Shown piece after piece: positions 14,897 to 55,041 of a stretch of 64,000 nucleotides of DNA; the first letter of the stretch is position 1, and each line of letters begins with the position of its first letter. The stretch covers positions 8,743 to 72,742 of the forward strand of contig JAWKNZ010000011.1 of the NCBI GenBank assembly GCA_041391425.1, written 5' to 3'. Position numbers and translations under genes: made by a program. The stretch is from Bdellovibrionota bacterium. GTDB taxonomy: Bacteria > Bdellovibrionota_B > Oligoflexia > Oligoflexales > JAWKNZ01. The notes under the pieces are model-generated. The model was given only the letters and a program-made list of their open reading frames with translations, was not told where the DNA came from and ran no database searches.

Positions 14897-15058
14897 CCCG
14901 GATTCGAATTTCTAGCCGGTTGCGTCGTTGCTTCATCGTCAGGAAATCCTCATGTACCACATGTACACTGCGGTTTCCCTCCTCCTCGCGCCTAGCACCC
15001 GGCTGAACTTCGAATCTGGTGAAAATACTACAGTTTTTCAAAAAACTTCAGGTCCCGG
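14897..15058. mobile_element. Family A MITE, copy A1
   Basis: CCCGGATTCG...AGGTCCCGG flanked by direct repeat ATGCAG; between convergent rlmN and mtaB. Confidence 0.85.
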
Positions 15059-15132
15059 ATGCAGGCATGTTGAATGAGAATTAACTTGTGACTAAGTTAG
15101 GGTTTTTATGGATACTCTTTATTTTGCTCCCC

Positions 15133-16510
15133 TTAATAAGTCAAGGATGGTATTGCTAACAAGTCAAATTGGTTGGTAAAGCCTTTCAAGGTTACTTCTG
15201 ATATCATTCCAGGCTGGATCTGTTCACTGGGTTTAGATACTATATTTAAATAGTTTTTACTTTTTCCTTTTAGCCTACCAGCTTCGTCGTATTGGTGTTC
15301 CCATAGAACAGTCAAATTTTTATTAAGAAATGATCGAGCGTAAGCTCCTTGGAGTTCAGCAGCTAGCTTGCGTAACTCAGCTGCTCGAGATTTTACTATG
15401 GAGGCTTCGATATGGCCTGGCATTCTAGCTGCCGCGGTGTTCGGACGTTTCGAGTAAGGAAACACATGCAGACCATTAAGCCCAGATTGGCGGATGAACT
15501 CTACTGTCGCTGCAAATTCTAAATCCGACTCTCCTGGAAAGCCAGGGATAACGTCGGCAGTTAAATTTGCATGTGGAAAGTATCTGCGGATTAGTGTGAG
15601 GGTGCTCTCATATTCTGAGCAGTTATAGCTGCGACGCATTAACGAAAGGATACGATCATGTCCAGATTGGAGAGGTAAATGGAAATGATCACAAAAACGA
15701 TCTTTTCTTCCGCCAATACATCTAAAAGACTATTACTAACTTCCATAGGTTCTAAAGATGAGATGCGCAGCCTTTTTAAACCTTTGTTTTTAAATATCTC
15801 GCGGAGCAAATCTATAAGTCCGAATCGGTGGCTATTATCATCACCTGCTAATAAATCATCTCCGTAGTCACCAATATGGATGCCTGTAAGTACAATTTCT
15901 TTGACCCCTTCACCTATCAGCCGATTTACCTCGTCGATAATTTTGAACGGATCGACACTTGAGCTAGCCCTCGAGCATAAGGTATGAGGCAATAGCTACA
16001 AAATCCATTGCATCCATCTTGGATTTTTAAAAAGGAGCGGGTGCGTGAATCTGATTTTGCTTTGTCAAAAAAAACAGCAGAACTTTTGAAATGTCCCTGA
16101 CGATTATCTTTGACTTGATTAATTCCTTCCGGAAGTTTACCTGAAAGTTGCCTTTCTTCATGGCTCTGATTTAGCGCCTTAGATACGAAAGCTATTAGCT
16201 CACTTTTAACTTCATTAGGAACGACGCAATCGACTTCTTCAAGGGTCGCAAGTCGAGCGGATTGGGTCTGAGCATAGCAGCCGGTAATCACCCTTAGGGC
16301 ACCCGGATTTTCTCGATGATAGCGTCTGAGTAAATATCTTGCTTCTTTTTCAGCGGCATTTGTGACTGAACATGAGTTGATCACATTGACATCGGACAGA
16401 TGCGGTTGGTCTACAATAGCGTAACCTTTTGAAATAAACTGGTTTTCAATGGCTCTGGTATCATAGGTGTTAACCTTGCAACCTAGTGTTTTTATATAAA
16501 CTTTAGGCAT
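15133..16510 (-). CDS. mtaB: tRNA t6A37 methylthiotransferase, split into 3 ORFs by two frameshifts (probable sequencing errors)
   Basis: TLGCKVN, INSCSVT, ITGCYAQ, LKIQDGCNGFCSYC, GFPGES, HVFPYSKRPNT across ORFs 15926-16510, 15639-15992 and 15133-15639. Confidence 0.9.
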
Positions 16511-16707
16511 TATAGTCCTTTTTTCCCCCTAATCGAGTTGCGCTTTATTCAGCAGCAACTTATTATGCTACAATTAGCTTAGTTGCAAGCCCTCAAATTT
16601 CCTAATAAGATCCTATATATATGGGGGCAGGAAACGTTTCTCACAGGGTGGTAGAGCACCCCTTACGCAGAGATAGTAAAAGGCGGCGGCCTGGTTATGG
16701 AGATCAT

Positions 16708-18693
16708 ATGTTTGCAGATTATGGCTTTTACTTGATGTTCTTGTGTCTCATAACTAGTAGTTATGGGGTGATCGCTGCGTTAGTTTCGGCAAAGATGCGC
16801 CATCGGCGTCTATATCGATCGGCAAGAGTGGCTGCAACTCTAACCTTTGTGATGTGTTTCGTGGCTGCCTTACTGATGTGGTATATGCTTTTTACGCGTG
16901 ATTATTCTGTTAGGTATATTGCCTATAATTCCTCTAATGACCTTCCCTCATTTTATACTTTAACTGCGTTTTGGGCTGCACTCGAAGGATCACATTTTTT
17001 TTGGACGCTTTTAATTTGCTTGTTTTCATTAATAGCCCACTGGACATACTCTAAAGATAATGAGCATATCATGCCGTATGTCAGTGCCTCTACTCAGTTT
17101 ATTTTGGTATGGATGTTTTATTTGGCTGTTACTTACTCTGACCCTTTTGTGAGGATTTTTCCTGTGCCAGAGGATGGACAGGGAATGAATGCATTGCTGC
17201 AAAATCCCTATATGCCTTTTCATCCCCCATCTTTATTTACTGGCTATAGTTCACTCATTATTCCTTTCTCTTATTCAATTGCGGCTTTATGTTACGGTGA
17301 CATTACTGAAGGCTGGTTGAAGACTGTACGCAGGTGGACTCTTTTTGCCTGGATTTTTCTCACTATTGGACTATTTTTAGGAGGCCGTTGGGCCTATGTG
17401 GAGTTAGGTTGGGCTGGTTATTGGGCTTGGGATCCGGTTGAGAACTCTAGTTTTATACCGTGGCTTTTCTCTACCGCTATGTTGCATTCGTTGCAAGTGC
17501 AAGATAGGCTGGGGCATCTAAAGCGTCTGACAATTGTTCTTGCTACTTTGGCATTCTTTTTTAGCTTTTTTGGGACATTTATAACCCGCTCAGGTTTGAT
17601 AAGCTCAGTTCACTCTTTTGCGCAGTCTCCTATTGGCCCTAACTATCTCGCATTTCTGGCGCTGTTTTTATGCCTTACTATAGCTTTATATGCGGTGCGA
17701 GCACCATCAATCTTGCCCTTTGATACCGAAAAAGTCTGGGGGTTTTCTCGCGAATCAGCCTTGGTTATCACCCAGTTTTTGGTGCTTGCCTTTGCGGGGG
17801 TGATTTTTGTTGGAACTATGTATCCTATTATCTCAGAAGCCATTACCGGTGCTAGGTTTAATGTACAGGCTCCTTATTTTAACGCTTTTGCTCCGTATAT
17901 AGGATTTGGATTTATTTTGGCTATTGGTATAGGTAACCTTGTACAGTTCAAGTCTGGTAAATTAACCGGCGGAGCTAAATTGCAAATTGTAGCTGGACTT
18001 CTAGCAATCCCTTTGTCAGCTATATTTATTGTTGGTGGGGACGTTTTTCGTACTAAATCGCCGTTTGCATTAGGTGCGCAAATTGTCGGGTTTTGGATTT
18101 TGAGTTGGTGTACTATATGTCTTATTTATGATTTTTACGACCATCTCAAAAGATTGAAGTTTAATACCAAGTTACTATTAAAGCGTAATTTATCTTATTG
18201 TGGAGCCTTTGTTGCTCATATTGGTGTGCTGGTAGCGATAGCAGGATTTTTGGGTAATTATCGAGGTCTTGAAAGAGAAGTAACATTGAAGGCTGGTGAG
18301 TCGACTGAGTTGTATGGATATCAGTTTAACTTTGATGGCATTAAAATGGAACAGAATGCAAATGCAACTCATTACGCTGCTCCCTTAAAAGTGACTAAGC
18401 TAGGTAAGGTGATAGGAGAGGTTAAGGCTGCTCGCAGTAAGTATCCGACTAAGGCAGAACTTATGCACGAGGTTGGGTTAATTGGTAGCTTTTGGCATGA
18501 TATATATGCTGTGTTAGCTGATTTTGATAAAACGGATGGAGCGACAGCAACCTTTCAACTTCATATTAATCCAACAGTTCGTATTGTTTGGATTAGTGCT
18601 TTTATTATGATCTTTGGAGGTTTTCTTAGTCTATTTGATCGCCATCGCGGAGTTCGCAGCCGAGACCATGTTGCAGGTTCTTGGGAGGTTTAG
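16708..18693 (+). CDS. ccmF: Cytochrome c biogenesis heme lyase CcmF
   Basis: WAYVELGWAGYWAWDPVENSS (WWD domain), HPP, SVHSFA; GGAG before ATG 16708. Confidence 0.95.
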   Translation: MFADYGFYLMFLCLITSSYGVIAALVSAKMRHRRLYRSARVAATLTFVMCFVAALLMWYMLFTRDYSVRYIAYNSSNDLPSFYTLTAFWAALEGSHFFWTLLICLFSLIAHWTYSKDNEHIMPYVSASTQFILVWMFYLAVTYSDPFVRIFPVPEDGQGMNALLQNPYMPFHPPSLFTGYSSLIIPFSYSIAALCYGDITEGWLKTVRRWTLFAWIFLTIGLFLGGRWAYVELGWAGYWAWDPVENSSFIPWLFSTAMLHSLQVQDRLGHLKRLTIVLATLAFFFSFFGTFITRSGLISSVHSFAQSPIGPNYLAFLALFLCLTIALYAVRAPSILPFDTEKVWGFSRESALVITQFLVLAFAGVIFVGTMYPIISEAITGARFNVQAPYFNAFAPYIGFGFILAIGIGNLVQFKSGKLTGGAKLQIVAGLLAIPLSAIFIVGGDVFRTKSPFALGAQIVGFWILSWCTICLIYDFYDHLKRLKFNTKLLLKRNLSYCGAFVAHIGVLVAIAGFLGNYRGLEREVTLKAGESTELYGYQFNFDGIKMEQNANATHYAAPLKVTKLGKVIGEVKAARSKYPTKAELMHEVGLIGSFWHDIYAVLADFDKTDGATATFQLHINPTVRIVWISAFIMIFGGFLSLFDRHRGVRSRDHVAGSWEV

Positions 18694-18718
18694 AGTGCAC
18701 CTAAAGGTGGGGGAGAAA

Positions 18719-19222
18719 ATGAAAAAAACAATACGAGTTCTAATATCGAAAACCTTTGCATTGATCTTGCTAGGACATATTGGTTGGTTCGGTCATGAAG
18801 GGCTATTTGCCAGTAGCTTGGGATTTGAGGGTATGAGCGAAGAACAAATTGAGCTTTTTCAGCGTGTGGGTAACAATTTAAGATGCCCAACTTGCACTGG
18901 CCTTAGTGTTATGCAATCAGAGGCTGACTTCGCTGTGAAAATCAGAGAAGCAGCTAGAGACCAAGTTTTACAAGGAAAGTCTGAAGCGGAAATCATGACT
19001 TTTTTTATTGAAAGGTATGGGCTATGGATTTTGCGTAAGCCACCAGCCGAAGGCTTTCACGTAATGGCTTGGGGTGTGCCTATTGCCTTTGCTTTGCTGG
19101 GGGCCTTATTTCTTTGGTTTTTTGTTTGGCGTAAGCCTAAACAGGTGGACCTTGGAGGTATTCGTACGACGCAAGATATTATGCTAGAAATGGAAAATCA
19201 ATTAGCTCAGATGAGAAAATAA
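18719..19222 (+). CDS. ccmH: Cytochrome c biogenesis protein CcmH
   Basis: LRCPTC motif, ERYGLWILRKPP, C-terminal TM; directly after ccmF. Confidence 0.9.
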   Translation: MKKTIRVLISKTFALILLGHIGWFGHEGLFASSLGFEGMSEEQIELFQRVGNNLRCPTCTGLSVMQSEADFAVKIREAARDQVLQGKSEAEIMTFFIERYGLWILRKPPAEGFHVMAWGVPIAFALLGALFLWFFVWRKPKQVDLGGIRTTQDIMLEMENQLAQMRK

Positions 19223-19275
19223 AAAATGCCTTTTGTAACTTTGTTTCTTGTACATTTTGTTAAGGAGAAAAACTG

Positions 19276-19560
19276 TTGTTATTTGCTATATCGATAGGAA
19301 TGGCTACCCTCCTTTTGCTATTAGCTCCTTTTTTTTACGGAAAAGGTGGTGTGTTAATGGCAGGAGCAGCAGAGCATAATCAGGAAGTTATTGAGAGGCA
19401 GAAAAAAGCCATCTTAAAAAGATATATATTGGACGAAAAGGCAGTAAAAGAGGGCACTATATCTAAAGTAGAATGGGAAAGCAAAAAACAGTTTTTAACA
19501 AATCGTTATTTGGATGCTTCTCGTCGTCTTGATTATTTACAGCATCATAAAAGTGATTAG
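19276..19560 (+). CDS. Small membrane protein, CcmI N-terminal-like
   Basis: N-terminal TM then EGTISKVEWESKK helix; position in the ccm cluster. Confidence 0.5.
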   Translation: MLFAISIGMATLLLLLAPFFYGKGGVLMAGAAEHNQEVIERQKKAILKRYILDEKAVKEGTISKVEWESKKQFLTNRYLDASRRLDYLQHHKSD

Positions 19561-19670
19561 AGATTTTGATAGATTTATAGTGGAGCTAGGTTACAGAACC
19601 TTCTGATATCCAAGTTCTCATGATGTTGAGAAAAAAAATTCGAATTATGCATTTGTAATTCCCTTTCTTT

Positions 19671-20375
19671 TTGAAGCGATTCGAGGATTATATGCACCAG
19701 TTTATTTTAAAGAGTTTTATTTGTACTACCTTATCAGTATTATATTTTTCATTACCAGTATTGGCATCTGAAAGTGAAAACATACAAATTGCTGAGCGAC
19801 ATGTTTTCGTCTTGCACTCAGGTCCAGACGTATTATGGGGAACATATATGTTTGGCGTAAATAATATGGGATCTGAAGCTACACTGTTTTCGGACAGAAT
19901 CAATCTACCCAGTGGAATTACTGATTTTGCGCCTCAAGAAGGTTTGAGCAATGAAGAGTTGAAAGCATCTCCTGAGGGAGGCCTAGTGTTTGAGAAAGAA
20001 TTTCCACCAGGTGTGACCTTGATAGCGATTGGATTCAAGCTTCCTGCGCAATTGGGAAAAGCAAGCCTACAGTTAAAATTTCACTATGATATTTCTGAAA
20101 TGAGCATATTAACTAAGGATGATAGTTTAAATCTTGAATTTGTTGGTGTGCCAATGCAGCTAGGTGATAATACAATAATGTCAAATGAGACATATAGAAC
20201 ATTTAAGTCTTCGCAAAAAATTGCTAAAGGGCAGCAACTCGAAGTCGCAGTGTCTAATATAGCAGGTAGGGCAAATTTCTGGCTTGTTGGTTCTATCTTC
20301 GCTGCTTTACTCCTTTTGCTGGCTTCTATATTTACCCTTAAAACAAAAGAGTCAATAGAGGTTGCAGAATTGTAG
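19671..20375 (+). CDS. Exported protein with C-terminal membrane anchor (hypothetical, ccm-cluster associated)
   Basis: Signal peptide VLA-S, beta-rich body, C-terminal TM; true start probably MHQF at 19692. Confidence 0.6.
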   Translation: MKRFEDYMHQFILKSFICTTLSVLYFSLPVLASESENIQIAERHVFVLHSGPDVLWGTYMFGVNNMGSEATLFSDRINLPSGITDFAPQEGLSNEELKASPEGGLVFEKEFPPGVTLIAIGFKLPAQLGKASLQLKFHYDISEMSILTKDDSLNLEFVGVPMQLGDNTIMSNETYRTFKSSQKIAKGQQLEVAVSNIAGRANFWLVGSIFAALLLLLASIFTLKTKESIEVAEL

Positions 20376-20423
20376 ATTTGTTTTAAGGGATTTTTTATTT
20401 TCTAATTATTAAAGTTTATATCT

Positions 20424-20633
20424 ATGTTAGGTTTTGTACTCAGAATTTTTATCTATTCGCTTTTGTTTTACTTAATTGTGAAAAAATTAAGTGTTGTATT
20501 GACCTCTTTAGTAAGTGATAAGTCTGCAAAGATGAATGGGAAAATTCCCTCATCATATGACGGTGATGGTGTTATTGAGATTTGCCCAAAATGTGGTCAT
20601 GAGCTTTCAAAAGGGCATAGATGCTCTTTGTAA
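20424..20633 (+). CDS. Small membrane protein with C-terminal Zn-ribbon-like motif
   Basis: N-terminal TM, CPKCGH...HRC. Confidence 0.5.
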   Translation: MLGFVLRIFIYSLLFYLIVKKLSVVLTSLVSDKSAKMNGKIPSSYDGDGVIEICPKCGHELSKGHRCSL

Positions 20634-20783
20634 TCAAATAGAATGTGCTGGTATATCCCCTTAAGTGAGTCATTATAGCCGTGCTTTAATAAAGTAACGG
20701 TTAATCTTTCTGAATTAATCTTTTAAAATAGTATAAGGCTGGGTTTTAATATTTGATCTATCTTCAAATTTAAGGAGGATCAT

Positions 20784-21611
20784 ATGAATAGGCAGTTTGT
20801 TAATTTTATTATGATAGCTTTCTTCTTTTCAACGGGGATTACATCGCGCAGCTTTTCACAAGACCTTTTTTCATGGCCAAGGCCATTGGTTGTCGGAAGT
20901 ATAGGAGACTCTATTTCCAGGGCTACAAATTCGACTGTTTTTGGGGAAGTGCCATTTTCAAGTTGGGCGACAGGTGGAGACACTCGCGTTTTTTCGCAGG
21001 CTGCAAGGCTTCAGGAGGAAACAGGATCTCTTGTTTTTACCTATAATTATGCTCGATCAGGCGCGCAGATGCGGCATTTAAGAAAGCAAGCCCAGAAGTT
21101 GCTTAAAAGAAAGCCTGATTATGTAACGATATTGATTGGTGCTAACGATTTATGTTCTTGGAAGCAAAATAATACGACTCAGTTGCAGGCATTTGAATCT
21201 GAGTTGCGAGGTACCTTAGATGATTTAACGACCTCTTCTCCTAAAGTAAAAATTATTTTAAGTGCTATACCTGACATGCTAAGGATGTATGAGCTGGGTA
21301 AACAAAAAGGTTGTAGCATGATGTGGAAGGTTTTTCGCTTTTGCTCACCTTTACTTGGAAAAGATCGTACTGAGATGCAAAGGCTCCAGTTTTATGACCG
21401 TTGGATAGACGCTAATAATTCTCTCGCATCGATTGCCGATGAGTATCCGAATAATGTTTTTTTTGCTGAATCGATAAAAGATTACGAGTTTTCTAAAGAT
21501 GATATCGCTGTTAGAGACTGCTTTCATCCCTCTATTAAAGGGCAAAGAGCATTATCGGAGCAGATATGGAATGCTGGATGGTTCAAGGCATTTCAAGAAA
21601 ATTTACCTTAA
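20784..21611 (+). CDS. Secreted SGNH/GDSL hydrolase
   Basis: GDSI, GAND and DCFHPS blocks; AGGAGG SD. Confidence 0.9.
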   Translation: MNRQFVNFIMIAFFFSTGITSRSFSQDLFSWPRPLVVGSIGDSISRATNSTVFGEVPFSSWATGGDTRVFSQAARLQEETGSLVFTYNYARSGAQMRHLRKQAQKLLKRKPDYVTILIGANDLCSWKQNNTTQLQAFESELRGTLDDLTTSSPKVKIILSAIPDMLRMYELGKQKGCSMMWKVFRFCSPLLGKDRTEMQRLQFYDRWIDANNSLASIADEYPNNVFFAESIKDYEFSKDDIAVRDCFHPSIKGQRALSEQIWNAGWFKAFQENLP

Positions 21612-21630
21612 TATAAAAAGTAAGGTAAAC

Positions 21631-23361: not shown

Positions 23362-23366
23362 GTTTA

Positions 23367-23468
23367 GGGCGTGTTGACGTTTCATTTCCTACTACGAGCC
23401 CAAACCCTTCCTAGCTGCGACTTTCAAGTATTTGGCTCTCGCTACGAAAATGAAACGTCAACACGCCC
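23367..23468. mobile_element. Family B MITE, copy B1 (internally deleted, 102 bp)
   Basis: 21-bp TIR GGGCGTGTTGACGTTTCATTT at both ends, TA on both flanks; centre lost between AAACCCTT microhomologies. Confidence 0.9.
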
Positions 23469-23473
23469 TAGTT

Positions 23474-23537
23474 TTAAGGGAAGTAAAACCTAACAGACAA
23501 GGCTTAACGCAGTATGATGGATTTTTACTTCCCTTAA
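23474..23537. mobile_element. Family C palindromic element, copy C1 (internally deleted)
   Basis: TTAAGGGAAGTAAAA...TTTTACTTCCCTTAA ends; shares AAAACCTA.CAGACAAGG and GCTTAACGCAGTAT with 29802-29918. Confidence 0.7.
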
Positions 23538-29801: not shown

Positions 29802-29918
29802 TTAAAAGGAGTAAAACCTATCAGACAAGGTTTAGCAAGAAAACATAAGGGAATAGTACGTTTGGTACAGTGGCAAATGTTTTAGGCTTAACGCAGTATT
29901 AGGTTTTTTTCCTTTTAA
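29802..29918. mobile_element. Family C palindromic element, copy C2 (full length)
   Basis: TTAAAAGGAGTAAAACCTA...TAGGTTTTTTTCCTTTTAA imperfect TIRs; central GTAC-GTTTG-GTAC hairpin. Confidence 0.75.
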
Positions 29919-30135
29919 CATGCTGTCGAGCTACGATTATTATATTTTGATGATTAAAAAATGATGAGAAAATACCGCATAGCACTACTTTTAGGTAATT
30001 ATTGATTAAATTTTTGATTGGTTATCGTGACGTTTTTAAGGATATAGCGAGGTGACATGGATCGACAGTGTACCAGCGCTTTTCAACCATAATTACTTCA
30101 CAATTGTTTAGTTTGACAATCTTTTGCTGTTACTA

Positions 30136-30191
30136 GGGCGTGTTGACGTTTCATTTTCGTAGCGAGAGACAAATACTTGAAAGTCGCAGCT
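30136..30191. mobile_element. Family B MITE, copy B2 (one-ended fragment)
   Basis: CTA|GGGCGTGTTGACGTTTCATTTTCGTAGCGAGAGACAAATACTTGAAAGTCGCAGCT, identical to the ends of B4 and B5. Confidence 0.85.
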
Positions 30192-30467
30192 CTATTTTTT
30201 ATCTCAATATCATATTCGTTTTTATCCTTAGTGACTGCTCTGACTTGATGGTCCGTATATTGGTTTTTTCCATTGGATGTTAGTTCCCCATTAAAAGTAG
30301 AAAAGATAGGGCCATTTTGCATATATCTATCTAAAGAATCATTGAATTCTTTCGATTTATTAGATGTATTATCTTTTTTATTAGAAAGTTGTTTTGTAGC
30401 AAGGCTTTGAATCGATCAGATAAAAAATACGCTGAATAGTTACGAGAAATATTTAATCGGAAATGCT

Positions 30468-30536
30468 AGGCCTAAAAAACATGGGGAGGTAATATGTTTG
30501 GTATAGTGGCAAATGTTTTTTAGGCATAACGTAATA
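30468..30536. repeat. Family C element, degenerate core (C3)
   Basis: AAAAAACAT...GTTTGGTATAGTGGCAAATGTTTTTTAGGCATAACG matches the C2 core. Confidence 0.6.
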
Positions 30537-30560
30537 GGATATGCAGTACTTTAGATTATA

Positions 30561-33774: not shown

Positions 33775-34065
33775 CCCGTATCCGAGCTTTCTAGCCGGTT
33801 GCGTCGTTGTTTCGTCGTCAGGAAATCCCTCATGTACCAATATGCACTGCGGTTTCCTCCTCCTCGCGCCTAGCACCCGGCCGAATAAATCCGGTGAAGA
33901 CACATCCCGTATCCGATTTTCTTTACGGAATGTGGCGTTGCTCGTCGCTTGCAAAATCCTCTGCGTACCAATATGTACACTGCGGTTTCCCTCCTCGCGC
34001 CTAGCACCTGGCCGAATTTCGAATCCGGTGAAAATGCTACAGTTTTTCAAAAATTTAGATCCCGG
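33775..34065. mobile_element. Family A composite (truncated copy plus variant copy starting at 33906), A2
   Basis: Two head-to-tail cores inside a single ATTTAA direct-repeat pair. Confidence 0.8.
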
Positions 34066-38774: not shown

Positions 38775-38937
38775 CCGGGATCTGGAATTTTTTGAAAAAC
38801 TGTAGTATTTTCATCGGATTCGAAGTTCGATCGGGTGCTAGGCGCGAGGAGGCGGGAAACCGCAGTGTACATGTTGGTACATGAGGATTTCCTGGCGACG
38901 AAGCAACGCCGCAACCGGCTAGAAATTCGGATCCGGG
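38775..38937. mobile_element. Family A MITE, copy A3 (opposite orientation to A1)
   Basis: CCGGGATCTGG...GGATCCGGG flanked by direct repeat ATCTTAC. Confidence 0.88.
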
Positions 38938-41467: not shown

Positions 41468-41748
41468 TCATACTGCGTTACGCCTAAAAAACATTTGTCG
41501 CTGTACTAGGGCGTGTTGACGTTTCATTTCCTACTACGAGCCAAATCCTTGAGTCACAACGTTGTCAGGGTTTCAAAATTATCCTCAATGTACATTTAGT
41601 ACACCTCCGGTAATTTTTGAAACCCTTCCTAGCTGCGACTTTCAAGTATTTGTCTCTCGCTACGAAAATGAAACGTCAACACGCCCTAAAGGTACTATCT
41701 CCTCATTTTTCTAGGCAAGCCTTGTCTGATAGGTTTTGCTCTCCTTAA
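41468..41748. mobile_element. Family C element, copy C4, interrupted by B3
   Basis: Reverse-complement match to C2 on both sides of B3 (ATACTGCGTTACGCCTAAAAAACATTTG...CCTTGTCTGATAGGTTTT). Confidence 0.75.
41509..41686. mobile_element. Family B MITE, copy B3 (full length, nested in C4)
   Basis: 21-bp TIRs; CTA|element|TAA. Confidence 0.92.
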
Positions 41749-44572: not shown

Positions 44573-44663
44573 TACTTTTCAAAGTTATAGTGTACGTACA
44601 TAACCTTGTTGTAGAGAGAAAAAGTGATTTGAATCATGAAGTCTGTAGAAGGTGTTTTTTTTA

Positions 44664-44842
44664 GGGCGTGTTGACGTTTCATTTTCGTAGCGAGAGACAA
44701 ATACTTGAAAGTCGCAGCTAGGAAGGTTTTCAAAAATTACCGGAGGTGTACTAGATGTACATTGAGGATAATTTTTGAAACCCTGATAACGTTGTGATTC
44801 AAGGGTTTGGCTCGTAGTAGGAAATGAAACGTCAACATGCCC
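44664..44842. mobile_element. Family B MITE, copy B4
   Basis: TIRs with one mismatch; TTA|element|TAG. Confidence 0.92.
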
Positions 44843-45122
44843 TAGTCGGATGATACAGGGCTGACATATATCAGGCAACTTTATGGGATCAAGCTATAAT
44901 TTATATGCATTAATTGTTATAGTCCTAGTAGGGGGGTGTCTTGTTTTTAGTCACATCCTTGGCATTAGGCTCTAGTTTGCTCGCTGAGGCTTTTTTAAAA
45001 AAAGTATTGTAGTGCTTATAATGATTTGCTAATAAATAGGTACAAACATCCAATGATTTTTGATAATTATTATTTTGGTTGTCAAATCAAAGCTTACTGC
45101 TCGCAGGTATTTGGGGGTATCT

Positions 45123-46064: not shown

Positions 46065-46228
46065 CCCGGATCCGAATTTCTAGCCGGCTGCGGCGTTTGC
46101 TTCGTCGTCAGGAAATCCTCATGTACCAACATGTACACTGCAGTTTCACTCCTCCTCGCGCCTAGCACCCGAGCGAACTGAATCCGGTGAAAATACTCTA
46201 CAGTTTTTTCAAAAATTTCAGATCCCGG
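46065..46228. mobile_element. Family A MITE, copy A4
   Basis: CCCGGATCCG...AGATCCCGG flanked by direct repeat ATAGAT. Confidence 0.9.
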
Positions 46229-46702: not shown

Positions 46703-46861
46703 CCGGGATCTGAAATTTTTTGAAAACTGTAGTATTTTCACCGGATTCGAAGTTTGCTCGGGTGCTAGGCGCGAGGAGGTGGGAAACCGCAGTGTATGTT
46801 GCTTGGCAAAGGGATTTTCTGACGATGAAGCAACGCCGCAACCATTTCATCCGGATCCGGG
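46703..46861. mobile_element. Family A MITE, copy A5 (variant core)
   Basis: CCGGGATCTG...GGATCCGGG flanked by direct repeat ATAATAAAA. Confidence 0.85.
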
Positions 46862-46910
46862 ATAATAAAAACGTTTTGCTAAATGATGGCATTGATGGAT
46901 TTTCCTGTTA

Positions 46911-46940: not shown

Positions 46941-46965
46941 ACTGTAAAATAGATTTGACATGTAA

Positions 46966-47127
46966 CCGGGATCTGAAATTTTTTGAAAAACTGTAGTATT
47001 TTCAGCGGATTCGCAGTTCGCTTAGGTGCTAGGCGCGCGGAGGTGGAAACCGCAGTGTACATGTTGGTACATGAGGACTTCCTGACGACGAAGCAACGCC
47101 GTAACCGGCTAGAAATTCAGATCCGGG
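46966..47127. mobile_element. Family A MITE, copy A6
   Basis: CCGGGATCTG...AGATCCGGG flanked by direct repeat ATGTAA. Confidence 0.9.
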
Positions 47128-47640: not shown

Positions 47641-48768
47641 GTGTTGAGAAAGTGCCGGATGAATTTGAAGAACCAAATGAGATCTATTTTTATAGTTCAT
47701 GAAACCTCAGGGCGGCCATATTACAAAGGGATTGAAGAGTTAGGCAAAGAAAAAAATTTCGAAGTTGTTTATATAGAATCAAGCGTCCTTCGTCTTACAA
47801 TAGCAAATATTGTAAAGCGGGATTGGAAGAGAGGGTATTCGAAGCAAATTTTATCTAATCTTCTTTTCCGAATCAAAGTGCCTTTTTTTAAAAATAGGCT
47901 TATTTTGTTACCGATGGCCCCTTTTGATTTTCGCATGATTTGGTATCGGCTACTGTGCCGAAAAAACAATGTTATATATCATACATCCTGGCCTTATTGG
48001 GATGGCAGTAATGTACCTAGATGGTCAATCTTTCCGTTAAGGTCATTTGTAATGAAAGCTTGGCGAAAGTTTTTTGCTGAGGGGGCGAAATGTATTGTAA
48101 GTGTATTGCCTCTTACTTGTAAATCTATTTTACAGAATTTTTATTGCTGTGTACCTTGCCATTCTATACCACATGCACACGAGTTTAGTGTTCGAGATAA
48201 AATGAAGCTGTCTTTGCAAGATAGAGATAAGCCTCTCAAAATTTTATTTGTTGGCAAACTAATTAGTGAAAAAGGCTTAGAAAATCTTGTGAAGATATCC
48301 AACCTTTTACCTTTATCGGAGAAAATACAGTTGACAATTGTCGGCGATGGTAAGGATAAAAATCTAATCCAGCCAGCATTAGACGTGGGTGCGGTTTGGT
48401 TAGGAGCGGTATCAGATAGAGCAGAATTAAAAAAAGTTTTTGAGTGTCATGATGTTTTGTTAGTTCCTTCGCAAAGAAAAAAAGGCTGGGAGGAGCTTTT
48501 TGGTATGGTTATAATAGAAGCAATGTCTCAAGGTTTAACTGTTATAGCTAGTAATCATATTGGACCAGAAAGCATTGTAAACGAGTCTACAGGTTATATC
48601 TTAGAAGAAAGCCAGCCTGAAGCTTGGGTTGAAGCCATTTTATCATTACATACTAATCGCGGTAATTTATTAAAGCTGCAAGAAGCTGCCATTGCGGAAA
48701 GCCATAAGTATACCACTGCAGTTATAAAAGATGCATGGTGGGAGGTACTTAAAGATTATTTGATCTGA
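47641..48768 (+). CDS. GT4 family glycosyltransferase
   Basis: LFVGKLISEKG, VGDG, EELFGMVIIEAMSQG; start may be 47659 or 47677. Confidence 0.88.
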   Translation: MLRKCRMNLKNQMRSIFIVHETSGRPYYKGIEELGKEKNFEVVYIESSVLRLTIANIVKRDWKRGYSKQILSNLLFRIKVPFFKNRLILLPMAPFDFRMIWYRLLCRKNNVIYHTSWPYWDGSNVPRWSIFPLRSFVMKAWRKFFAEGAKCIVSVLPLTCKSILQNFYCCVPCHSIPHAHEFSVRDKMKLSLQDRDKPLKILFVGKLISEKGLENLVKISNLLPLSEKIQLTIVGDGKDKNLIQPALDVGAVWLGAVSDRAELKKVFECHDVLLVPSQRKKGWEELFGMVIIEAMSQGLTVIASNHIGPESIVNESTGYILEESQPEAWVEAILSLHTNRGNLLKLQEAAIAESHKYTTAVIKDAWWEVLKDYLI

Positions 48769-48813
48769 TAGAAAAATATCAATTTAGCTAAGTATTTTTG
48801 CTATTAGGGTTAG

Positions 48814-49551
48814 TTATGAGTTGGCAAAACTCATAATCAAACCTATAACTCCACCAAACACCCCCCCCCATACTACAAGCCAACCTAAATGCTTATGAAT
48901 CATTTCTTGGATAATCTCTTTTACCATTTTAGGGGTGAGTTCTTCGAGCCGTGTGTCGACAATTCCCTCTATTTTAGTAAGAATAACATCATTGCCGTTT
49001 TGGCCGAAAGATTGGCTGAGTTTTTCTTGAAATTCGTCTGAGTTTCCTATTTCAAACAGTATTTCTTTCATTTTTTCTTCAAAAGGAGATCTTAGTGGCG
49101 CTAAAGCTTCATGGCCGCCCATCATTGCTAGCATACCTCCCATTGGAGAGGTCAGGACGACATCAGTGAGCCCTCGGTAGACTTTTTCATAATCTATCGA
49201 TGCTATAATACCTCTAAATCCGTCTAAATTTTCTGAGTTTTCATAGGCGTTATTGTCAGAAAATTTCATCTCTTTAAAAATTCTTTCGAGATTTTCAGTG
49301 TTGAAAAACTGATTCATCATCAAATGCTTTATGCCACTTTTAAATTCTTCGAAACGGTTAGGAATGACTCCTGAGCCATATAATCCAGGAATTTTCTCGA
49401 AAAGCATATGGACAGCAAGCCAATTGGTAATAGCTCCAGAAAAGGCGAAATAGCCGATTGAAGACAAGTGCTCTCCGGTACGACCAGGTATAGCGTAGCT
49501 GGCTATTATACAAATAAGTGCAACTAAATTAGTAAGAAGAGATTTATTCAT
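48814..49551 (-). CDS. DUF445 family membrane protein
   Basis: SGAITNWLAVHMLFEKIPGLYGSGVIP; HLGWLVVWGGVFGG. Confidence 0.85.
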   Translation of the reverse strand: MNKSLLTNLVALICIIASYAIPGRTGEHLSSIGYFAFSGAITNWLAVHMLFEKIPGLYGSGVIPNRFEEFKSGIKHLMMNQFFNTENLERIFKEMKFSDNNAYENSENLDGFRGIIASIDYEKVYRGLTDVVLTSPMGGMLAMMGGHEALAPLRSPFEEKMKEILFEIGNSDEFQEKLSQSFGQNGNDVILTKIEGIVDTRLEELTPKMVKEIIQEMIHKHLGWLVVWGGVFGGVIGLIMSFANS

Positions 49552-49587
49552 TTTAAAGTTTTGTGTTTGACTTTCGGGATTAAAGAT

Positions 49588-49995
49588 TTACTTGCTGCCT
49601 ACCTTGCAGCCTGTATTAACGGATCGCATGATGTCTTCTCTTGGAATCAAATCTGTAGGCAAGGAAGCACGGCGTATATTGGCTCTATGAAGCACAGCTC
49701 CGCGCAACTTGGAATAATCAAGGTCGGCACCTTCTAAATTTGCACCAGAAAAATCTGCTCCCTCCAAATTCGCATTCCAAAGGGAGGCATCTCTGAGGTC
49801 AGCGTTGCGAAAGATGGCGTCCTTCAAATTTGCATAGGAGAAGTTGCTGTTCTTGCAGTTACAGTCAGAAAAGTCGACTTTGATAAGGTTGGCCTTTCTC
49901 ATATCCATTTCAGCTAAGGGCATTTTTTCAGCTAATAACTCCAAGACTTCTTTTCTTGTGAGTGTTTGTGTCTTTGGCTGTTTGTCCTTATTCAT
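49588..49995 (-). CDS. Pentapeptide repeat protein
   Basis: A(N/D)LxxA repeats: ANLKDAIFRNADLRDASLWNANLEGADFSGANLEGADL. Confidence 0.88.
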   Translation of the reverse strand: MNKDKQPKTQTLTRKEVLELLAEKMPLAEMDMRKANLIKVDFSDCNCKNSNFSYANLKDAIFRNADLRDASLWNANLEGADFSGANLEGADLDYSKLRGAVLHRANIRRASLPTDLIPREDIMRSVNTGCKVGSK

Positions 49996-50181
49996 TGCAT
50001 CTCCTCGCTAATGGTGCGTATTCCAACCTGGCAGAATTACCACAGTTATTTTGAAAATCAAAGAATTGTTTTTTGAATTTTGATAGGGGCTATTAGAGTT
50101 ATAGCTAAGGTTTAAACACTTTGAGGGCTGATGTTAGGCTGTGCATGAATGAATAAGGGGTCGAGTAGAGAGCTTTAGCTC

Positions 50182-51042
50182 CTAATAAGTCGCTTGCTTT
50201 ATAGCTTGAATGACAGCCTTTACTGCCTGTGTTTTAGTCAAGTCTGCTCGATGGATAAGGCAAACTTGATCGCTAAATGTTGGTGCACTCTTAGATAGCA
50301 ATGATAGATTATTGCTTTGCCCAGCTTTGGCTACGCGTTCAGGGAGAATGGCAACACCAATGCCACTAGAGGCAAGATTTTTTATGACTTCCAAATTAGA
50401 TGAATGGATATGCCGCATAAATGTATTGGAGAATTTTGGGTTTTTCTTTAATTTTTTCAATAAATTAGAGCTTTGTTGGAGGTTTGGGTCGTAAATTAAA
50501 ATATTCTTTTCGAAACTATTTGATGTAAGCTTCCAAAACCCAACTTGGTCTTGACATAGCTTATGAATCACTAATTCTGGATGATTGACCGGATTGACGA
50601 CTATTCCTAGGTCAAGCCTGAGGCTGATAACCTCTTCTGCTATTTTTCTAGATAGGTCATGCTGTAGATTGATGGTTAACTCACTATTTTCAATGAGGAG
50701 TTTGGGTAGGAAACGGTTCAATGTATAAAGTGCTACGGAAGGGTGGCAGCCAAGTGAAACTTCTCCTGATATTTCATAGTGTGATTTGAGAGTATCAGCC
50801 CGAAGCTGTTTCCAATTTTCTAATACAAGGCGACTGCCATTGAGAAATTTTCTACCAGCTTGGGTTAGTTTTACTCCATTTTTGAATCGCGTTAGGAGTG
50901 GAACGCCAATATTTTCTTCCAATCTTTTTACGGAGAGGCTAATGCTAGGTTGAGTAAGGCCAAGGCGCTCGGCGGCTCTAGAAAGATTTTCTGTCTTTGA
51001 AACTTCAATGAAATTAACAATATCTGTCGAGGAAGGTAGCAT
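50182..51042 (-). CDS. LysR family transcriptional regulator
   Basis: NLSRAAERLGLTQPSISLSVKRLEE...LTQAG; divergent from the dioxygenase gene. Confidence 0.93.
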   Translation of the reverse strand: MLPSSTDIVNFIEVSKTENLSRAAERLGLTQPSISLSVKRLEENIGVPLLTRFKNGVKLTQAGRKFLNGSRLVLENWKQLRADTLKSHYEISGEVSLGCHPSVALYTLNRFLPKLLIENSELTINLQHDLSRKIAEEVISLRLDLGIVVNPVNHPELVIHKLCQDQVGFWKLTSNSFEKNILIYDPNLQQSSNLLKKLKKNPKFSNTFMRHIHSSNLEVIKNLASSGIGVAILPERVAKAGQSNNLSLLSKSAPTFSDQVCLIHRADLTKTQAVKAVIQAIKQATY

Positions 51043-51197
51043 AAATTTTTCCTATCCCATTCATGTATATTATTAATTTATCATCTGGCTCAGAAATGAT
51101 CTATGATGCCTCGATCGTTTAGGGATCTTACAGAGGCTGTCTGCCATCAATTTGAGCTTACGTAAGTTACTTCTATTTTACTTCAAAGGAGAAGAGC

Positions 51198-51863
51198 ATG
51201 GCAAATCATGACATTATGAACCGGAGAAAGTTGTTACAAGGGATTTCGGCATTATCACTTGGCTCGGTTGGAGCAAGTGCGTTATCGCAAGCGCTGTGTA
51301 AAATTCCCACAGCGCAGCAGACTGAGGGGCCTTTTTATCCAGTGGAGGAGCAGGAGGATGAGGACTTCGATCTGACTCGTGTTGCTGGGCATAGAGAAGG
51401 TGCTAAAGGAGAAAAAATTAAGGTGAGAGGTTTAGTGCAAGATCAAAATTGTCTACCGGTTGCTGGAGCCTTAGTTGAAGTTTGGCAAGCTTGCCATTCT
51501 GGGCGTTATAACCATCCTTCTGACCCTAATACTGGTGTCGAATTAGACCCAAATTTCCAATATTGGGGAAGGGCTATTAGTGCTGAAGACGGATCTTATC
51601 AATTTTTAACCATCCGCCCGGGGCAGTATCCAGCTTCTGATACTTGGATCCGTCCATCGCACATACATTTTAAGATACAAAAACGCGGATATAGAGAGTT
51701 AACAACCCAAATGTATTTTGCTGGTGACAGATACAATGCTAGTGACTTAATTTTGAATGAGTTGACTGACGCAGAAAAAGATGCCGTTATTGTAGATTTT
51801 CAAGAAGATGCTAACGAAACTTATCCAGTTGGAACATTCGATATTGTAATAGAAAAGTTGTAG
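51198..51863 (+). CDS. Intradiol ring-cleavage dioxygenase (protocatechuate 3,4-dioxygenase beta-like) with Tat signal
   Basis: NRRKLL twin-arginine leader; EGPFY, EVWQA, GRYNH, PGQY, RPSHIH, TTQMYF. Confidence 0.88.
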   Translation: MANHDIMNRRKLLQGISALSLGSVGASALSQALCKIPTAQQTEGPFYPVEEQEDEDFDLTRVAGHREGAKGEKIKVRGLVQDQNCLPVAGALVEVWQACHSGRYNHPSDPNTGVELDPNFQYWGRAISAEDGSYQFLTIRPGQYPASDTWIRPSHIHFKIQKRGYRELTTQMYFAGDRYNASDLILNELTDAEKDAVIVDFQEDANETYPVGTFDIVIEKL

Positions 51864-52026
51864 GCGGGATCTGAAATTTTTTGAAAAACTGTAGTATTTT
51901 TATCGGATTCGAAGTTCGGCTGGGTGCTAGGCGCGAGGAGGAGGGAGACCGCAGTGTACATGTTGGTACATGAGGATTTCCTGACGACAAAGCAACGACG
52001 CAACCGGCTAGGAATTCGGATCCGGG
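51864..52026. mobile_element. Family A MITE, copy A7
   Basis: Flanked by direct repeat TTGTAG, which includes the dioxygenase stop codon. Confidence 0.9.
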
Positions 52027-52119
52027 TTGTAGACTTTCTTTATGCTGGTTTTTTCATAGGATGATGAACAAAAAATCAGATATTGAAAGGAGTAAGTTTT
52101 GGATATATGAAAGATACTA

Positions 52120-52298
52120 GGGCGTGTTGACGTTTCATTTTCGTAGCGAGAGACAAATACTTGAAAGTCGCAGCTAGGAAGGGTTTCAAAAATTACCGGA
52201 GGTGTACTAGATGTACATTGAGGATAATTTTTAAAACCCTGACAACGTTGTGACTCAAGGGTTTGGCTCGTAGTAGGAAATGAAACGTCAACACGCCC
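52120..52298. mobile_element. Family B MITE, copy B5
   Basis: Perfect 21-bp TIRs; CTA|element|TAG. Confidence 0.93.
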
Positions 52299-52327
52299 TA
52301 GATGGAATTGATGGCGCGGAGGGTAAT

Positions 52328-53173
52328 ATGCCAGTCTTACATAGGATTCAACTTGATCCGATTGTTTCTCGAGCATTGGAAGAAGATTGGGGGCATGGAG
52401 ATTGGACGACTGATCTTTGTGTTGCAGAAGACTCATATGCGACTGCTAAAATTATTACAAAACAGCCTAATATTGTTGCTTCTGGAGTAGAAGTTGCTAT
52501 CAGAGTGTTTGAAAAGGTAGATCCGGATTTAAAAATTGTTCAGCATGCTGAAAACGGGCAAGAGTTGAAGGCTGGTGATTTGATTATAGAGATTGCTGGT
52601 AAAAGCCGTTCGATTTTGAAGGCTGAGCGTGTTGCCCTAAATTTTTTAGGACGGCTTTCTGGGATTGCAACTGAAACAAAAAAATATGTTCGACTTTTAG
52701 AAGGAACAGAGACACAGTTGCTTGACACTCGTAAAACGACACCTGGCCTTAGGTTGCTTGAAAAATCTGCGACAGTTGTCGGTGGCGCCCGTAATCACAG
52801 GCTTTGTCTGACAGATGGTGTCATGGTCAAAGAAAATCATATTCGTGCAGCCGGTGGTATAACTGAAGCATTGAATCGCTTAGTGGAAAGCCTACCTCCT
52901 ACATTGAAAATAGAAGTTGAAACCACAAACTTGGATGAGGTTCAAGAGGCTATTGAAGCAGGTGCTGATTTGATAATGTTGGATAATATGTCTATTTCTG
53001 AGATGGCTTTGGCCGTTAGAACGGTAAGAGGAAGGGCATTATTAGAAGCATCTGGCAATATTACTCTAGATAATTTACGTCAGGTTGCAGAAACTGGGGT
53101 AAATTTTGTTTCTACGAGTGCCATTTTGCATTCTTCAAAGTGGGCTGATTTGAGTTTGTTGTTTAATGTCTGA
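52328..53173 (+). CDS. nadC: Nicotinate-nucleotide pyrophosphorylase (carboxylating)
   Basis: AERVALN, DTRKTTPGLR, NHR, KENH, EVE, MLDN, EASG; GGAGGG SD before ATG 52328. Confidence 0.95.
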   Translation: MPVLHRIQLDPIVSRALEEDWGHGDWTTDLCVAEDSYATAKIITKQPNIVASGVEVAIRVFEKVDPDLKIVQHAENGQELKAGDLIIEIAGKSRSILKAERVALNFLGRLSGIATETKKYVRLLEGTETQLLDTRKTTPGLRLLEKSATVVGGARNHRLCLTDGVMVKENHIRAAGGITEALNRLVESLPPTLKIEVETTNLDEVQEAIEAGADLIMLDNMSISEMALAVRTVRGRALLEASGNITLDNLRQVAETGVNFVSTSAILHSSKWADLSLLFNV

Positions 53174-54773
53174 ATATTCCCATATTAAAACGCATAAATT
53201 TGCAGAGCTGGACTCTACTTCAGATGAAGTGCAGTCGTTGCTTTCGCAAGGCATTAATCCTCCTTTCGTCGTCTGGGCTTCCAAGCAGTTAAAAGGAAGG
53301 GGTCGTAGAGGTAGGAGTTGGCAGAGTGGTGAAGGAAACTTATTTTTAACATTTGCACTTCCTCCCCATTCTTCAAAGACGATTGAAATTGGTTTGTTGC
53401 CAATAGCTGCTGCTGCAATCGTGGCCCAGTGGATTAAGTCTTTTTATTCAATTTCTGTCAGAATTAAATGGCCCAATGATTTAGTCTTTCAAGGTAGAAA
53501 GCTTGGAGGGATTCTCTGTGAATCCTCAATTCAGGGTAAAGAGTGGGGAGATATTTCAATCGGTATAGGATTGAATTTAAATACTGCTCCCGACAATACG
53601 GGGTTAGCTTATCGGTGCACTTCTATTCGAGGCATTTTAGCTGATGACTCAGTTTTTTTAGACGTTGAAGAGGCTAGAGATTCTTTTATCGAATACTTTT
53701 ATTCATCTTGGCTTTCGTTAGATCAACAAAAAATTATAGCTGCCTACTCTGACTTTGCTTTACCGGCAGGCCAACCTGTTTACTTTTGTCAGAAAAAAGA
53801 ATTGTTTTTAACGTCTGGGCTTGAAATTGATGGTTCTTTGCGGCTGGAGTCAGCTGTAAATCCTGGGGAAATTATACCTTTATCTAGTGTAAACCATGAA
53901 TGTGAATGGCTTTACATTGATTACATCAAATCCAATGACCTGCATGAAGAGGCTTTTGGTGTTCCCAACTTGCCTTTTCTTTGTCTTGATATTGGTAATA
54001 GCTTAATTAAAATTTTTTCTTTTGAATCGTGGAAAAATGAGTTTCCTTCCTTTGTTTTTGCTGTTTCTCCACAAGAATTGCCTCGTAAAAAACTTGTTGA
54101 ATTGTTTCCTACAAAAGTTTTATCTTTTTTGGAAAAGATGCCTGGATGGCCTGTTTATTGTTCGAGCGTAAGCCCAGAGGCTTATCAATGTGCTAAATTA
54201 TTTTTTAGTGATGCCGGCGTACGCTTAATTGATGTTGAGAAAAATCCTGTATTTTACCAAGATGGAGCTTACGAGCTTAGTGATTTGGGCATTGATCGCT
54301 TAGCGCTTTTGGAGGGGTGGTTGCGTTGTTTATCTCCGCAGGAGCGTCGAAGAAACGATGTTCTTGCTTTTGTGATTTCTGCAGGGACTGCGACCACAGT
54401 AGATGTGATTTCTAACGAAGGTTACCACTTTGGCGGTTATATTTTACCTGGTATGCAGCTAATATTGGATGCGTTGGCGGATAGTACGGGACTTTTACCT
54501 GAGATTGAATTGCGTACCATGACGGATGTTTTATGTTTTAAGAGGAGAATTGCTTCCAATACACTTATGGCCATGCTTGACGGTGCACTGTTGATGACTG
54601 TTGGTGGAATCGAGAAAATTATCAAAGAGGTTTGTTCGGAGCTAGGAAAACAGTACAGAGAAACTAAAGTTGTCGTCACTGGAGGCAATGCTGCTTTTTT
54701 GGAAAAAGAGCTGAAGGGTAGTCTCTGCAACGATCTTATGCCTAGTGGGATACGCACTTTATGCGGCTTATAA
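53166..54773 (+). CDS. Bifunctional biotin-protein ligase / type III pantothenate kinase fusion (BirA-CoaX)
   Basis: N-half QLKGRGRRGRSW, KWPND, KLGGILCE; C-half LDIGNS, LGIDR, AGTATTVD, GGYILPG, TGG. Confidence 0.88.
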   Translation: MSEYSHIKTHKFAELDSTSDEVQSLLSQGINPPFVVWASKQLKGRGRRGRSWQSGEGNLFLTFALPPHSSKTIEIGLLPIAAAAIVAQWIKSFYSISVRIKWPNDLVFQGRKLGGILCESSIQGKEWGDISIGIGLNLNTAPDNTGLAYRCTSIRGILADDSVFLDVEEARDSFIEYFYSSWLSLDQQKIIAAYSDFALPAGQPVYFCQKKELFLTSGLEIDGSLRLESAVNPGEIIPLSSVNHECEWLYIDYIKSNDLHEEAFGVPNLPFLCLDIGNSLIKIFSFESWKNEFPSFVFAVSPQELPRKKLVELFPTKVLSFLEKMPGWPVYCSSVSPEAYQCAKLFFSDAGVRLIDVEKNPVFYQDGAYELSDLGIDRLALLEGWLRCLSPQERRRNDVLAFVISAGTATTVDVISNEGYHFGGYILPGMQLILDALADSTGLLPEIELRTMTDVLCFKRRIASNTLMAMLDGALLMTVGGIEKIIKEVCSELGKQYRETKVVVTGGNAAFLEKELKGSLCNDLMPSGIRTLCGL

Positions 54774-54878
54774 ATAAGTATGGATAGATGTTTTCTGAGG
54801 AATCGATACTGTAATTGATTGTCTCATCTCATTGAGCTTTCGTATTTATTAGAAGTAAATATTGCCCTTTGTATGTAT

Positions 54879-55041
54879 CCCGTATCCGAATTTCTAGCCG
54901 GTTGCGTCGTTGCTTCGTCGTCAGGAAATCCTCATGTACCAACATGCACACTACGGTTTCCCTTCTCCTCACGCCTAGCACCCGGCCGAACTTCGAATTC
55001 GTTGAAAATACTACAGTTTTTCAAAAAATTTCAGATTCTGG
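54879..55041. mobile_element. Family A MITE, copy A8
   Basis: CCCGTATCCG...AGATTCTGG flanked by direct repeat ATGTAT. Confidence 0.88.

Follow-up and report, generated by a model that had tools for sequence, protein, structure and literature searches.

Does one folded interior recur inside mini-transposons that carry unrelated ends, and what might it do there? The window, by which we mean the whole 64,000-nt stretch of DNA analysed, holds nine family A, five family B and four C-type MITE copies or fragments (Table 1), and the sequence-only reading had proposed that A and B carry the same bulged hairpin. We located both cores that it quoted, at 38855-38892 (+) for A and at 52188-52232 (+) for B; its example copy A7, if the seventh copy (46966-47127) was meant, reads CTTCC rather than TTTCC, one letter off, and otherwise agrees. 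With a relaxed core pattern we obtained 7 matches in the window and 179 in the genome, and none when the window was dinucleotide-shuffled 200 times (12.8 Mb).

Table 1. MITE copies, fragments and shared cores in the window (positions of the 64,000-nt stretch)
Feature	Position	Strand
Family A MITE, IS1380-type ends, 6-bp duplication, core intact	14897..15058	-
Family B copy; core lost by deletion between short direct repeats	23365..23470	-
C-type copy, 64 bp; only ends and AGG...AACG frame left	23474..23537 (C11 32215)	+
Family C MITE; GTAC hairpin, AGG...AACG frame, without GNA/GA loop	29802..29917	+
GAGGAG/CGACGAA-type loop of family C, degenerate in this copy	29802..29917	+
Family B fragment, left end	30134..30191	+
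Family C fragment	30470..30541	+
Family A partial copy, in tandem with the 33906..34065 copy	33775..33885	-
Family A divergent copy, 82.5% to reference	33906..34065	-
Family A reference copy	38775..38937	+
Shared core, family A: CC/GG, bulged A, GCA/GA loop, G·T, GTAC stem	38855..38892	+
Family C copy; B insertion interrupts apical loop	41468..41754	-
Family B MITE nested inside family C	41507..41688	-
Family B MITE, IS5-type ends, core intact	44662..44844	+
Family A MITE	46065..46228	-
Family A MITE, decayed core	46703..46864	+
Family A MITE	46966..47127	+
Family A MITE	51865..52026	+
Family B reference copy	52118..52300	+
Shared core, family B: GGA/GA loop, two G·T pairs	52188..52232	+
Family A MITE	54879..55041	-

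Families A and B are gene-less mini-transposons with the ends of two different transposase families. Terminal inverted repeats are present in A, B and C/E, and the elements are short (163, 183 and 122 bp), transposase-less and multicopy, near-full copies numbering 110 for A, 91 for B, 15 for C and 24 for E. Family A is flanked by a 6-bp target duplication in 59 of 85 two-ended copies and its right end equals that of IS1380 at 15/15 bases; family B occupies a YTAR target in 85 of 90 copies and its end matches that of IS5 at 19/21 bases. Autonomous partners lie in the same genome (IS1380 at C2:297842-299882 for A, IS5 at C19:51094-51953 for B), which encodes the transposase domains PF13701 and PF01609/PF13340, in agreement with the claim that different transposases move the two families. 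These IS1380 and IS5 elements share terminal repeats with A and B but encode a transposase, and the core is absent from both. The outer-plus-inner repeat layout of IS1380 is mirrored in the left arm of family A, where an inner TIR-like repeat near 38814 of the reference copy forms a 124-bp symmetric hairpin with the right end. DDE-type ends and duplications also led us to reject REP/RAYT membership for A and B. A search for the mover of C/E detected no IS630 DDE domain (DDE_3) in the 93%-complete genome and no convincing match to the C/E ends in 40 relatives; IS630 gains no support as their mover, nor as that of two CTATATAG-ended families elsewhere, since four IS630 loci lack the ends of those families. 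None of 153 A copies and none of 93 B copies falls inside a gene called by a simple gene caller. Short metatranscriptome contigs from three runs of one study join A and B ends to other flanks; given their length they reveal neither the strand nor the level of expression and carry no weight here. By local GC skew, copies divide between replication strands 80 vs 53 for A and 46 vs 36 for B, and on a complete chromosome strands look mixed by eye among the matches listed; with the skew bias this weak, we discarded a strong replication-strand bias.

The sequence common to A and B is the core alone, a folded, one-strand, G·A-rich hairpin. The best A-B local alignment covers only the core, and its score of 30 is not significant when compared with shuffles (maximum 42, p 0.085), so homology continuing to the ends, the case that the sequence-only reading had set against its own proposal, was not detected. 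The other features it described are present: in both families CC/GG pairs, a bulged A, a GNA/GA loop and wobble pairs (a single G·T in A, two in B); in family C a central GTAC-N5-GTAC hairpin without the GNA/GA loop; and in all three an AGG...AACG frame. The check it had proposed, covariation around a constant loop across taxa, came out in its favor. Among 59 non-redundant hits, counted at pairs left free in the search pattern after dropping 4 of 130 pattern matches with short flanks, two pairs exchange as C:G 29 / T:A 28 and C:G 40 / T:A 16, and model hits beyond the pattern replace CC/GG by GC/GC and a G-C pair of the GTAC stem by T-A while keeping the loop. The GNA/GA loop is constant across taxa (N is G in 36 and C in 21 of 59), the apical spacer is 4-7 nt long, and on one strand purines predominate at unpaired positions (G·A 252 vs C·T 20). 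The 3′ strand of the core reads UGAGG, as in the k-turn consensus; a kink-turn was rejected because on the 5′ strand nothing but GNA separates CC from the following stem, which departs from the 3-nt-bulge/tandem-G·A pattern. The expectation of excess core conservation among copies within the genome held for B (rare substitutions 0.006 vs 0.015 per site) and failed for A (0.031 vs 0.030).

A strand-specific structure, as had been claimed, is also seen in the folding energies: the motif strand is more stable in 54 of 59 elements with RNA parameters, and the median strand difference is -7.8 kcal/mol for RNA vs -3.4 kcal/mol for DNA. Tandem G·A, G·U and a bulged A are typical RNA building blocks, and the main rival reading, possible if doubtful, is an RNA module in which the co-transcribed motif strand would fold into a stable purine-rich helix and, by altering mRNA decay or processing or by binding a host RNA-binding protein, would render insertions tolerated or useful and thereby favor its carriers. 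The sense bias of family A (54 vs 34, p 0.04), mild as it is, fits this reading, as do RPE1, which is read on the motif strand, Bacillus core copies that sit among tRNA and rRNA genes, and copies conserved in place inside operons such as nuoL-nuoM. A passage in PMC2229807 further reports that ERIC affects mRNA stability in an orientation-dependent manner. Against an RNA module, family B is balanced between strands (24 sense / 21 antisense) and of six E. coli copies two are sense, three antisense to their flanking genes and one between divergent genes, so that no consistent link to the transcribed strand exists. No GNRA or UNCG tetraloop occurs among the 59 apical loops and the excess of G·T over A·C is weak (57 vs 36). 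These observations count for a role at the DNA level. Rfam 15 at the gathering score returned no family in the window and none in 11 loci, and in a set of 20 loci RF02228 (Xanthomonas sRNA sX9) exceeds gathering once (L035, 84 bits) with three weaker matches below it; this sole match covers half of a core-bearing element, the family model having a different structure and lying on the opposite strand, and we rejected Rfam membership on that ground.

We found the exact core at no fewer than 125 loci in at least 8 phyla, as judged by record title. It is present in 23 of 101 genomes of the host phylum and in 3 of 151 of another phylum, two of which hold 122 and 61 copies, and such patchy spread with bursts is the pattern of a mobile element and not of a housekeeping RNA. 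A viral collection gave 66 loci, about 20 of them distinct, and a phage element was rejected because many are chance matches or host-like DNA. In E. coli, a 150-bp repeat carries the exact core in 6 copies of one strain and is present in 5426/5426 genomes. Across seven comparisons with relatives, which left out L299 and the internally deleted L296, divergence was 0-12% in the core and 4-32% in the arms, compared to 31-44% at four-fold sites. Shared copies diverge less than synonymous sites in either orientation, and the antisense ffh-rpsP copy is kept as well as the sense nuoL-nuoM copy, a further point against an RNA module. This conservation in place would not be predicted by a purely transposition role and counts against one. 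At two E. coli sites the element is present in 5/23 and 6/28 intergenic regions and most relatives are without it.

Larger parts of the hairpin also recur under different ends, and a common chassis with exchanged ends fits this better than the cargo that the sequence-only reading had envisaged, of which the use of different transposases stands. Under different end types, arms from core to end fall into groups near 47, 58 and 77 nt (44/49 for A at its inner repeat, 47/49 for E, 77/75 for B) with a periodicity R of 0.56 at 9.5-10 nt (p 0.0002 vs two unimodal nulls), as measured in 43 of 75 elements, the other 32 having no terminal repeat call. A few ancestral lineages may account for these length classes, and among the 38-41 nt arms some inner stems have probably been taken for ends. 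Nested insertions able to swap ends are found in 6 of 91 B copies; a composite A::B amplified as a unit was rejected, because orientation and variants are not the same among the five nested copies. Only a minority of copies lack the core (14/91 B, 2/89 A), and these arose on several backgrounds, as expected of recurrent deletion without a burst of their own; coreless B is not supported as its own lineage, one variant being common to two coreless and two full copies. Neutral descent could also yield such a picture, if one ancestral MITE interior had spread horizontally with its ends swapped by nested insertion, while template switching and gene conversion kept the arms complementary and gave an appearance of conservation. 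The nested B copies, the missing E. coli elements and the lack of excess core conservation in A are compatible with it, and in family E both terminal repeats change together within one genome, as hairpin correction predicts. We regard it as improbable, since arm correction would erase loops while GNA/GA persists across phyla as neighboring stems turn over, and since a one-strand purine bias and divergence below four-fold sites need selection.

The ends, the cognate transposase genes, the core with its covariation and purine bias, and its absence from two autonomous elements are established, and the core likely has a role, still putative, in helping these tiny elements spread. The explanation we prefer, at a probability of about 0.4, is that the interior of the hairpin represents an ancient structured chassis with exchangeable ends, which aids mobilisation by acting in cis at the DNA level. 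New ends would be acquired by nested insertion and internal deletion; one strand would fold back so that the terminal repeats pair at a helically phased distance from the core, with non-canonical purine pairs stabilising the fold while the duplex stays an imperfect palindrome. The folded core would then offer a putative site for a widely conserved host protein, promoting mobilisation of very short elements by whichever transposase recognises their ends, and elements that retain it would amplify better. Counting against this explanation are the sense bias of A, the lack of a strong replication-strand bias, the larger strand energy gap with RNA parameters, the absence of excess core conservation in A, the chance that arm classes are lineages, and the amplification of family C without the GNA/GA loop. 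That a host regulator, methyltransferase or nucleoid protein instead recognises the core as double-stranded DNA, the hairpin being incidental, appears very unlikely: conservation independent of orientation would suit it, and parts of PMC2229807 offer precedents in the IHF site of Correia elements and the CcrM site of CIR elements, but base-pair covariation, a 4 to 7 nt spacer and whole-pair exchange are unlike a sequence-reading duplex site.

MITE interiors are usually taken as arbitrary, and according to one review (PMC3184786) no similarity exists between the cores of Neisseria, E. coli and Anabaena MITEs; here a single core recurs in different phyla and under ends that belong to at least two transposase families. 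We offer only tentatively the broader proposal that RPE1, the E. coli repeat and ERIC, kept separate for 35 years, form with unnamed MITEs of at least 8 phyla one superfamily, a transposase-agnostic chassis with helically spaced purine loops and a putative dock for a conserved host factor, able to take any DDE ends. Were the core to license amplification, either as a site for a host factor or as a folding device, the copy numbers in the hundreds of some MITEs would be explained, and RPE1, ERIC and the E. coli 150-bp repeat would be brought together; with about 6 copies, E. coli makes the question directly testable in a laboratory strain.

Comparison with known repeats places the core in several of them. 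The likeness to Rickettsia palindromic elements that the sequence-only reading had drawn proved correct, as two exact-core Rickettsia loci translate to RPE1 (TIGR01045, 57 and 65 bits; cut-off 30). RPE1 has the exact core, like A and B, within a long foldback of about 146-150 bp; its ends and length are unlike theirs, and its insertions are in frame within genes, while no called gene contains an A or B copy. The E. coli 150-bp repeat differs from A and B in its few copies kept in place, its partly eroded ends and its lack of a clear AGG...AACG frame; it is probably RSA/BEE95, judged from length and copy number (150/151 bp and 6 copies for RSA in a table of PMC5172473). ERIC/IRU (127 bp) shows the same pattern in its apical stem, G·T and GA included, and has an AAGGCG...ACGCA frame, and the GCGTAC/GTACGT stem itself is present in one enterobacterial copy (L294), but its loop is 2x2 GA/GA rather than 3x2 GNA/GA, it lacks CC/GG and the bulged A, and its ends differ; in E. 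coli, ERIC escaped detection by model R1. In plants, PMC3660474 and PMC9921582 describe internal sequence of the MITEs Stowaway Ost35 and mPing that enhances transposition, also under swapped TIRs, a precedent that is experimental there and only inferred here and has no sequence relation to A or B. We found no work linking RPE1, the E. coli repeat and ERIC by their core in the literature covered, to which the primary RPE and RSA papers do not belong. The module, which had been put forward as a candidate for an undescribed system, is not new in sequence, being the core of RPE1 and of the E. coli repeat with a variant in ERIC: the member repeats are known MITEs, and the core they have in common is apparently the new part.

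The bulged hairpin core (CC/GG pairs, bulged A, GNA/GA internal loop, G·T wobbles and GTAC stem) that the sequence-only reading had quoted from MITE families A and B was located in the window for both families (table); the observation holds up and is broader than it seems from the window alone. The window spans C11:8743-72742 of genome G000, which is 4.1 Mb long with 38% GC, and its genes are ordinary housekeeping genes; a relaxed core pattern has 7 matches in the window, 179 in the genome and 0 in 200 shuffles. Near-full copies genome-wide number 110 for A, 91 for B, 15 for C and 24 for E, which has the same ends as C and a core variant with GC/GC for CC/GG and ACA for GCA; a further family, D, lacks the core. 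A 6-bp duplication accompanies family A in 59 of 85 cases and a YTAR target family B in 85 of 90. The two families had been described as unrelated outside the core, and rather than continuous homology their alignment covers the core only, with a score within the shuffle range. Among copies within this genome, the core is more conserved than the remaining element sequence in family B and not in family A. Coreless copies number 14 of 91 in B and seven, each 77 bp long, in E (out of 56 C/E end pairs); deletions between short repeats produced them on several backgrounds.

Coordinates of features in the window, elsewhere in its genome (G000, contigs C2 to C19) and at compared loci of other genomes (L numbers)
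Feature	Location	Observation
Family A core	window 38855-38892	Sequence match
Family B core	window 52188-52232	Sequence match
Family D element	window 30400-30443	GTAACTATTCAG ends; 8-bp duplication in 38/53; REP-like palindrome as interior; 75 near-full copies genome-wide
REP-like array	window 9150-9330	Tandem 46-bp palindromic units, like family D interior; comparable arrays elsewhere in genome
Short tandem repeat	window 9948-10054	9-bp repeat toward 3' end of 1167-codon ORF with Ig-like and hydrazine-synthase-alpha domains
Fused gene	window 53166-54773	Biotin ligase domain fused to type III pantothenate kinase
IS1380 element	G000:C2:297842-299882	Right end identical to A right end over 15 bases
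IS5 element	G000:C19	19/21 bases match B end
Family A left-arm hot spot	e.g. G000:C11:117321	B insertions in both orientations
Family A tandem arrays	G000:C17:63883-64290 and other sites	125-bp structured unit (element positions 33-157) repeated within one end pair
ORFs adjoining family A sequence	G000:C4:301690-302555; C6:1-825; C9:29794-31883	Multi-copy, partly broken; apparently with C-terminal HNH-like motif
Core-bearing elements near RNA genes	L003:240-370; L017:240-390; L025	Bacillus, Metabacillus and one Deferribacteraceae genome; directly before 16S rRNA gene or among tRNA genes
ERIC elements	L294 (ffh-rpsP); L278 (nuoL-nuoM)	In intergenic region holding the E. coli 150-bp element

The genome has four IS1380-family matches and one IS5-family transposase, and the A left arm is similar to the tabulated IS1380 end plus its inner repeat. 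Because ends are shared, A and B were probably moved by these IS1380 and IS5 enzymes, respectively; the core is absent from both checked elements. No mover for C/E was found in the genome, which is 93% complete, or by comparison of ends in 40 relatives. Five of 91 B copies occupy one particular TA site in the A left arm (0.7-0.8 expected, p ~0.001), one B copy lies inside the apical loop of C, and a locus from another genome (L147) has TA-type ends around an almost identical domain of frame plus loop. Such nesting, if a deletion came after it, would leave an old interior between new ends.

The exact core pattern occurs at at least 125 loci in the genome collection, and the 80 matches listed by title span at least eight phyla by our assignment (Pseudomonadota, Bacteroidota with Chlorobia, Bacillota, Bdellovibrionota, Desulfobacterota, Nitrospirota, Planctomycetota and Deferribacterota). 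A terminal repeat was called in 84 of the 130 matches listed, mostly 120-150 bp with varied ends. By eye, many elements of a 145-bp class (e.g. L090, L051, L006) differ from the 122-bp class in a further basal loop whose 3' strand carries AGTA, reminiscent of a loop E / S-turn. Covariation across taxa with retention of the GNA/GA loop, proposed earlier as a check, is seen: among 59 non-redundant hits, two pairs left free by the pattern covary (C:G 29 / T:A 28; C:G 40 / T:A 16), as do pairs just outside it. In a 56-sequence alignment, 97% of cells are paired versus 10-56% in slid controls, the invariant pairs being imposed by the search pattern and thus uninformative. A covariance model matches 23 of 101 host-phylum genomes, with compensated changes at pattern-fixed pairs and the loop retained; in another phylum the exact pattern occurs in 3 of 151 genomes, two with 122 and 61 copies. 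The AGG...AACG frame stands at fixed distances (AGG-type in 38/59 elements, AAC-type in 42/59; control windows 2/52 and 10/52).

Template-switch repair of hairpins could by itself yield stem covariation, and the joint change of both ends in family E is in line with it, but loops would be lost in such repair and here they persist. Neutral descent of the core is an improbable reading, and a duplex DNA site is the least probable one. Mismatch columns beyond the fixed core are asymmetric when read on the motif strand (G·A 252 vs C·T 20, A·A 98 vs T·T 12, G·G 66 vs C·C 19), with isolated G·T in only modest excess over A·C (57 vs 36). Folding favours the motif strand in 54 of 59 elements with RNA parameters and in 51 of 59 with DNA parameters. 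Apical loops are free, with no GNRA or UNCG among them. Core-to-end arm lengths, measurable in 43 of 75 elements, cluster near 47, 58 and 77 nt under unrelated ends, about one helical turn of foldback apart, with lineages non-independent.

Copies lie both sense and antisense to co-directional flanking genes (A 54/34, B 24/21); of the six E. coli copies, 2 are sense, 3 are antisense and 1 lies between divergent genes; and replication-strand bias is weak or absent. We favour, with a probability of roughly 0.4, a cis role at the DNA level, because the core occurs in bursts and is absent from the two autonomous IS elements checked, and because the arms are phased and the core is indifferent to transcription direction. 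The core, as a cruciform or folded strand, would be the binding site of a putative host protein and would help elements of 120-180 bp get mobilised. A role of the core in RNA is somewhat less probable, and keeps its weight because E. coli copies are conserved in place and the building blocks are RNA-like. The E. coli element (149-151 bp) carries the core and is found in 5426 of 5426 genomes at a median of 5 places; among 35 enterobacterial genomes searched, it is present by eye in 5 of 23 nuoL-nuoM and 6 of 28 ffh-rpsP intergenic regions. Seven comparisons with E. coli gave differing sites of 0-12% in the core, 4-32% in the arms and 31-44% at four-fold sites of the upstream gene, and low core divergence could be mimicked by independent insertion or gene conversion. 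Core function is testable in E. coli.

This kind of element is known, and the shared core is apparently unremarked so far: we found no statement in the literature consulted that these repeats share one core, with a passing remark possible in the primary RPE, RSA, CIR or YPAL papers, and the supplements of PMC11602168 and PMC2267715 list many repeat sequences that may bear on the question. Among the loci compared with Rfam, sX9 was the sole family matched, on the opposite strand. The E. coli element fits RSA in tabulated size and number only (PMC5172473). ERIC copies match the core-bearing elements in apical stem pattern and in frame but have a 2x2 GA/GA loop, and one copy has the GCGTAC/GTACGT stem; this link is by inspection only because the core covariance model missed ERIC. 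The Rickettsia palindromic elements named in the sequence-only reading are relatives: exact-core Rickettsia loci encode RPE1.
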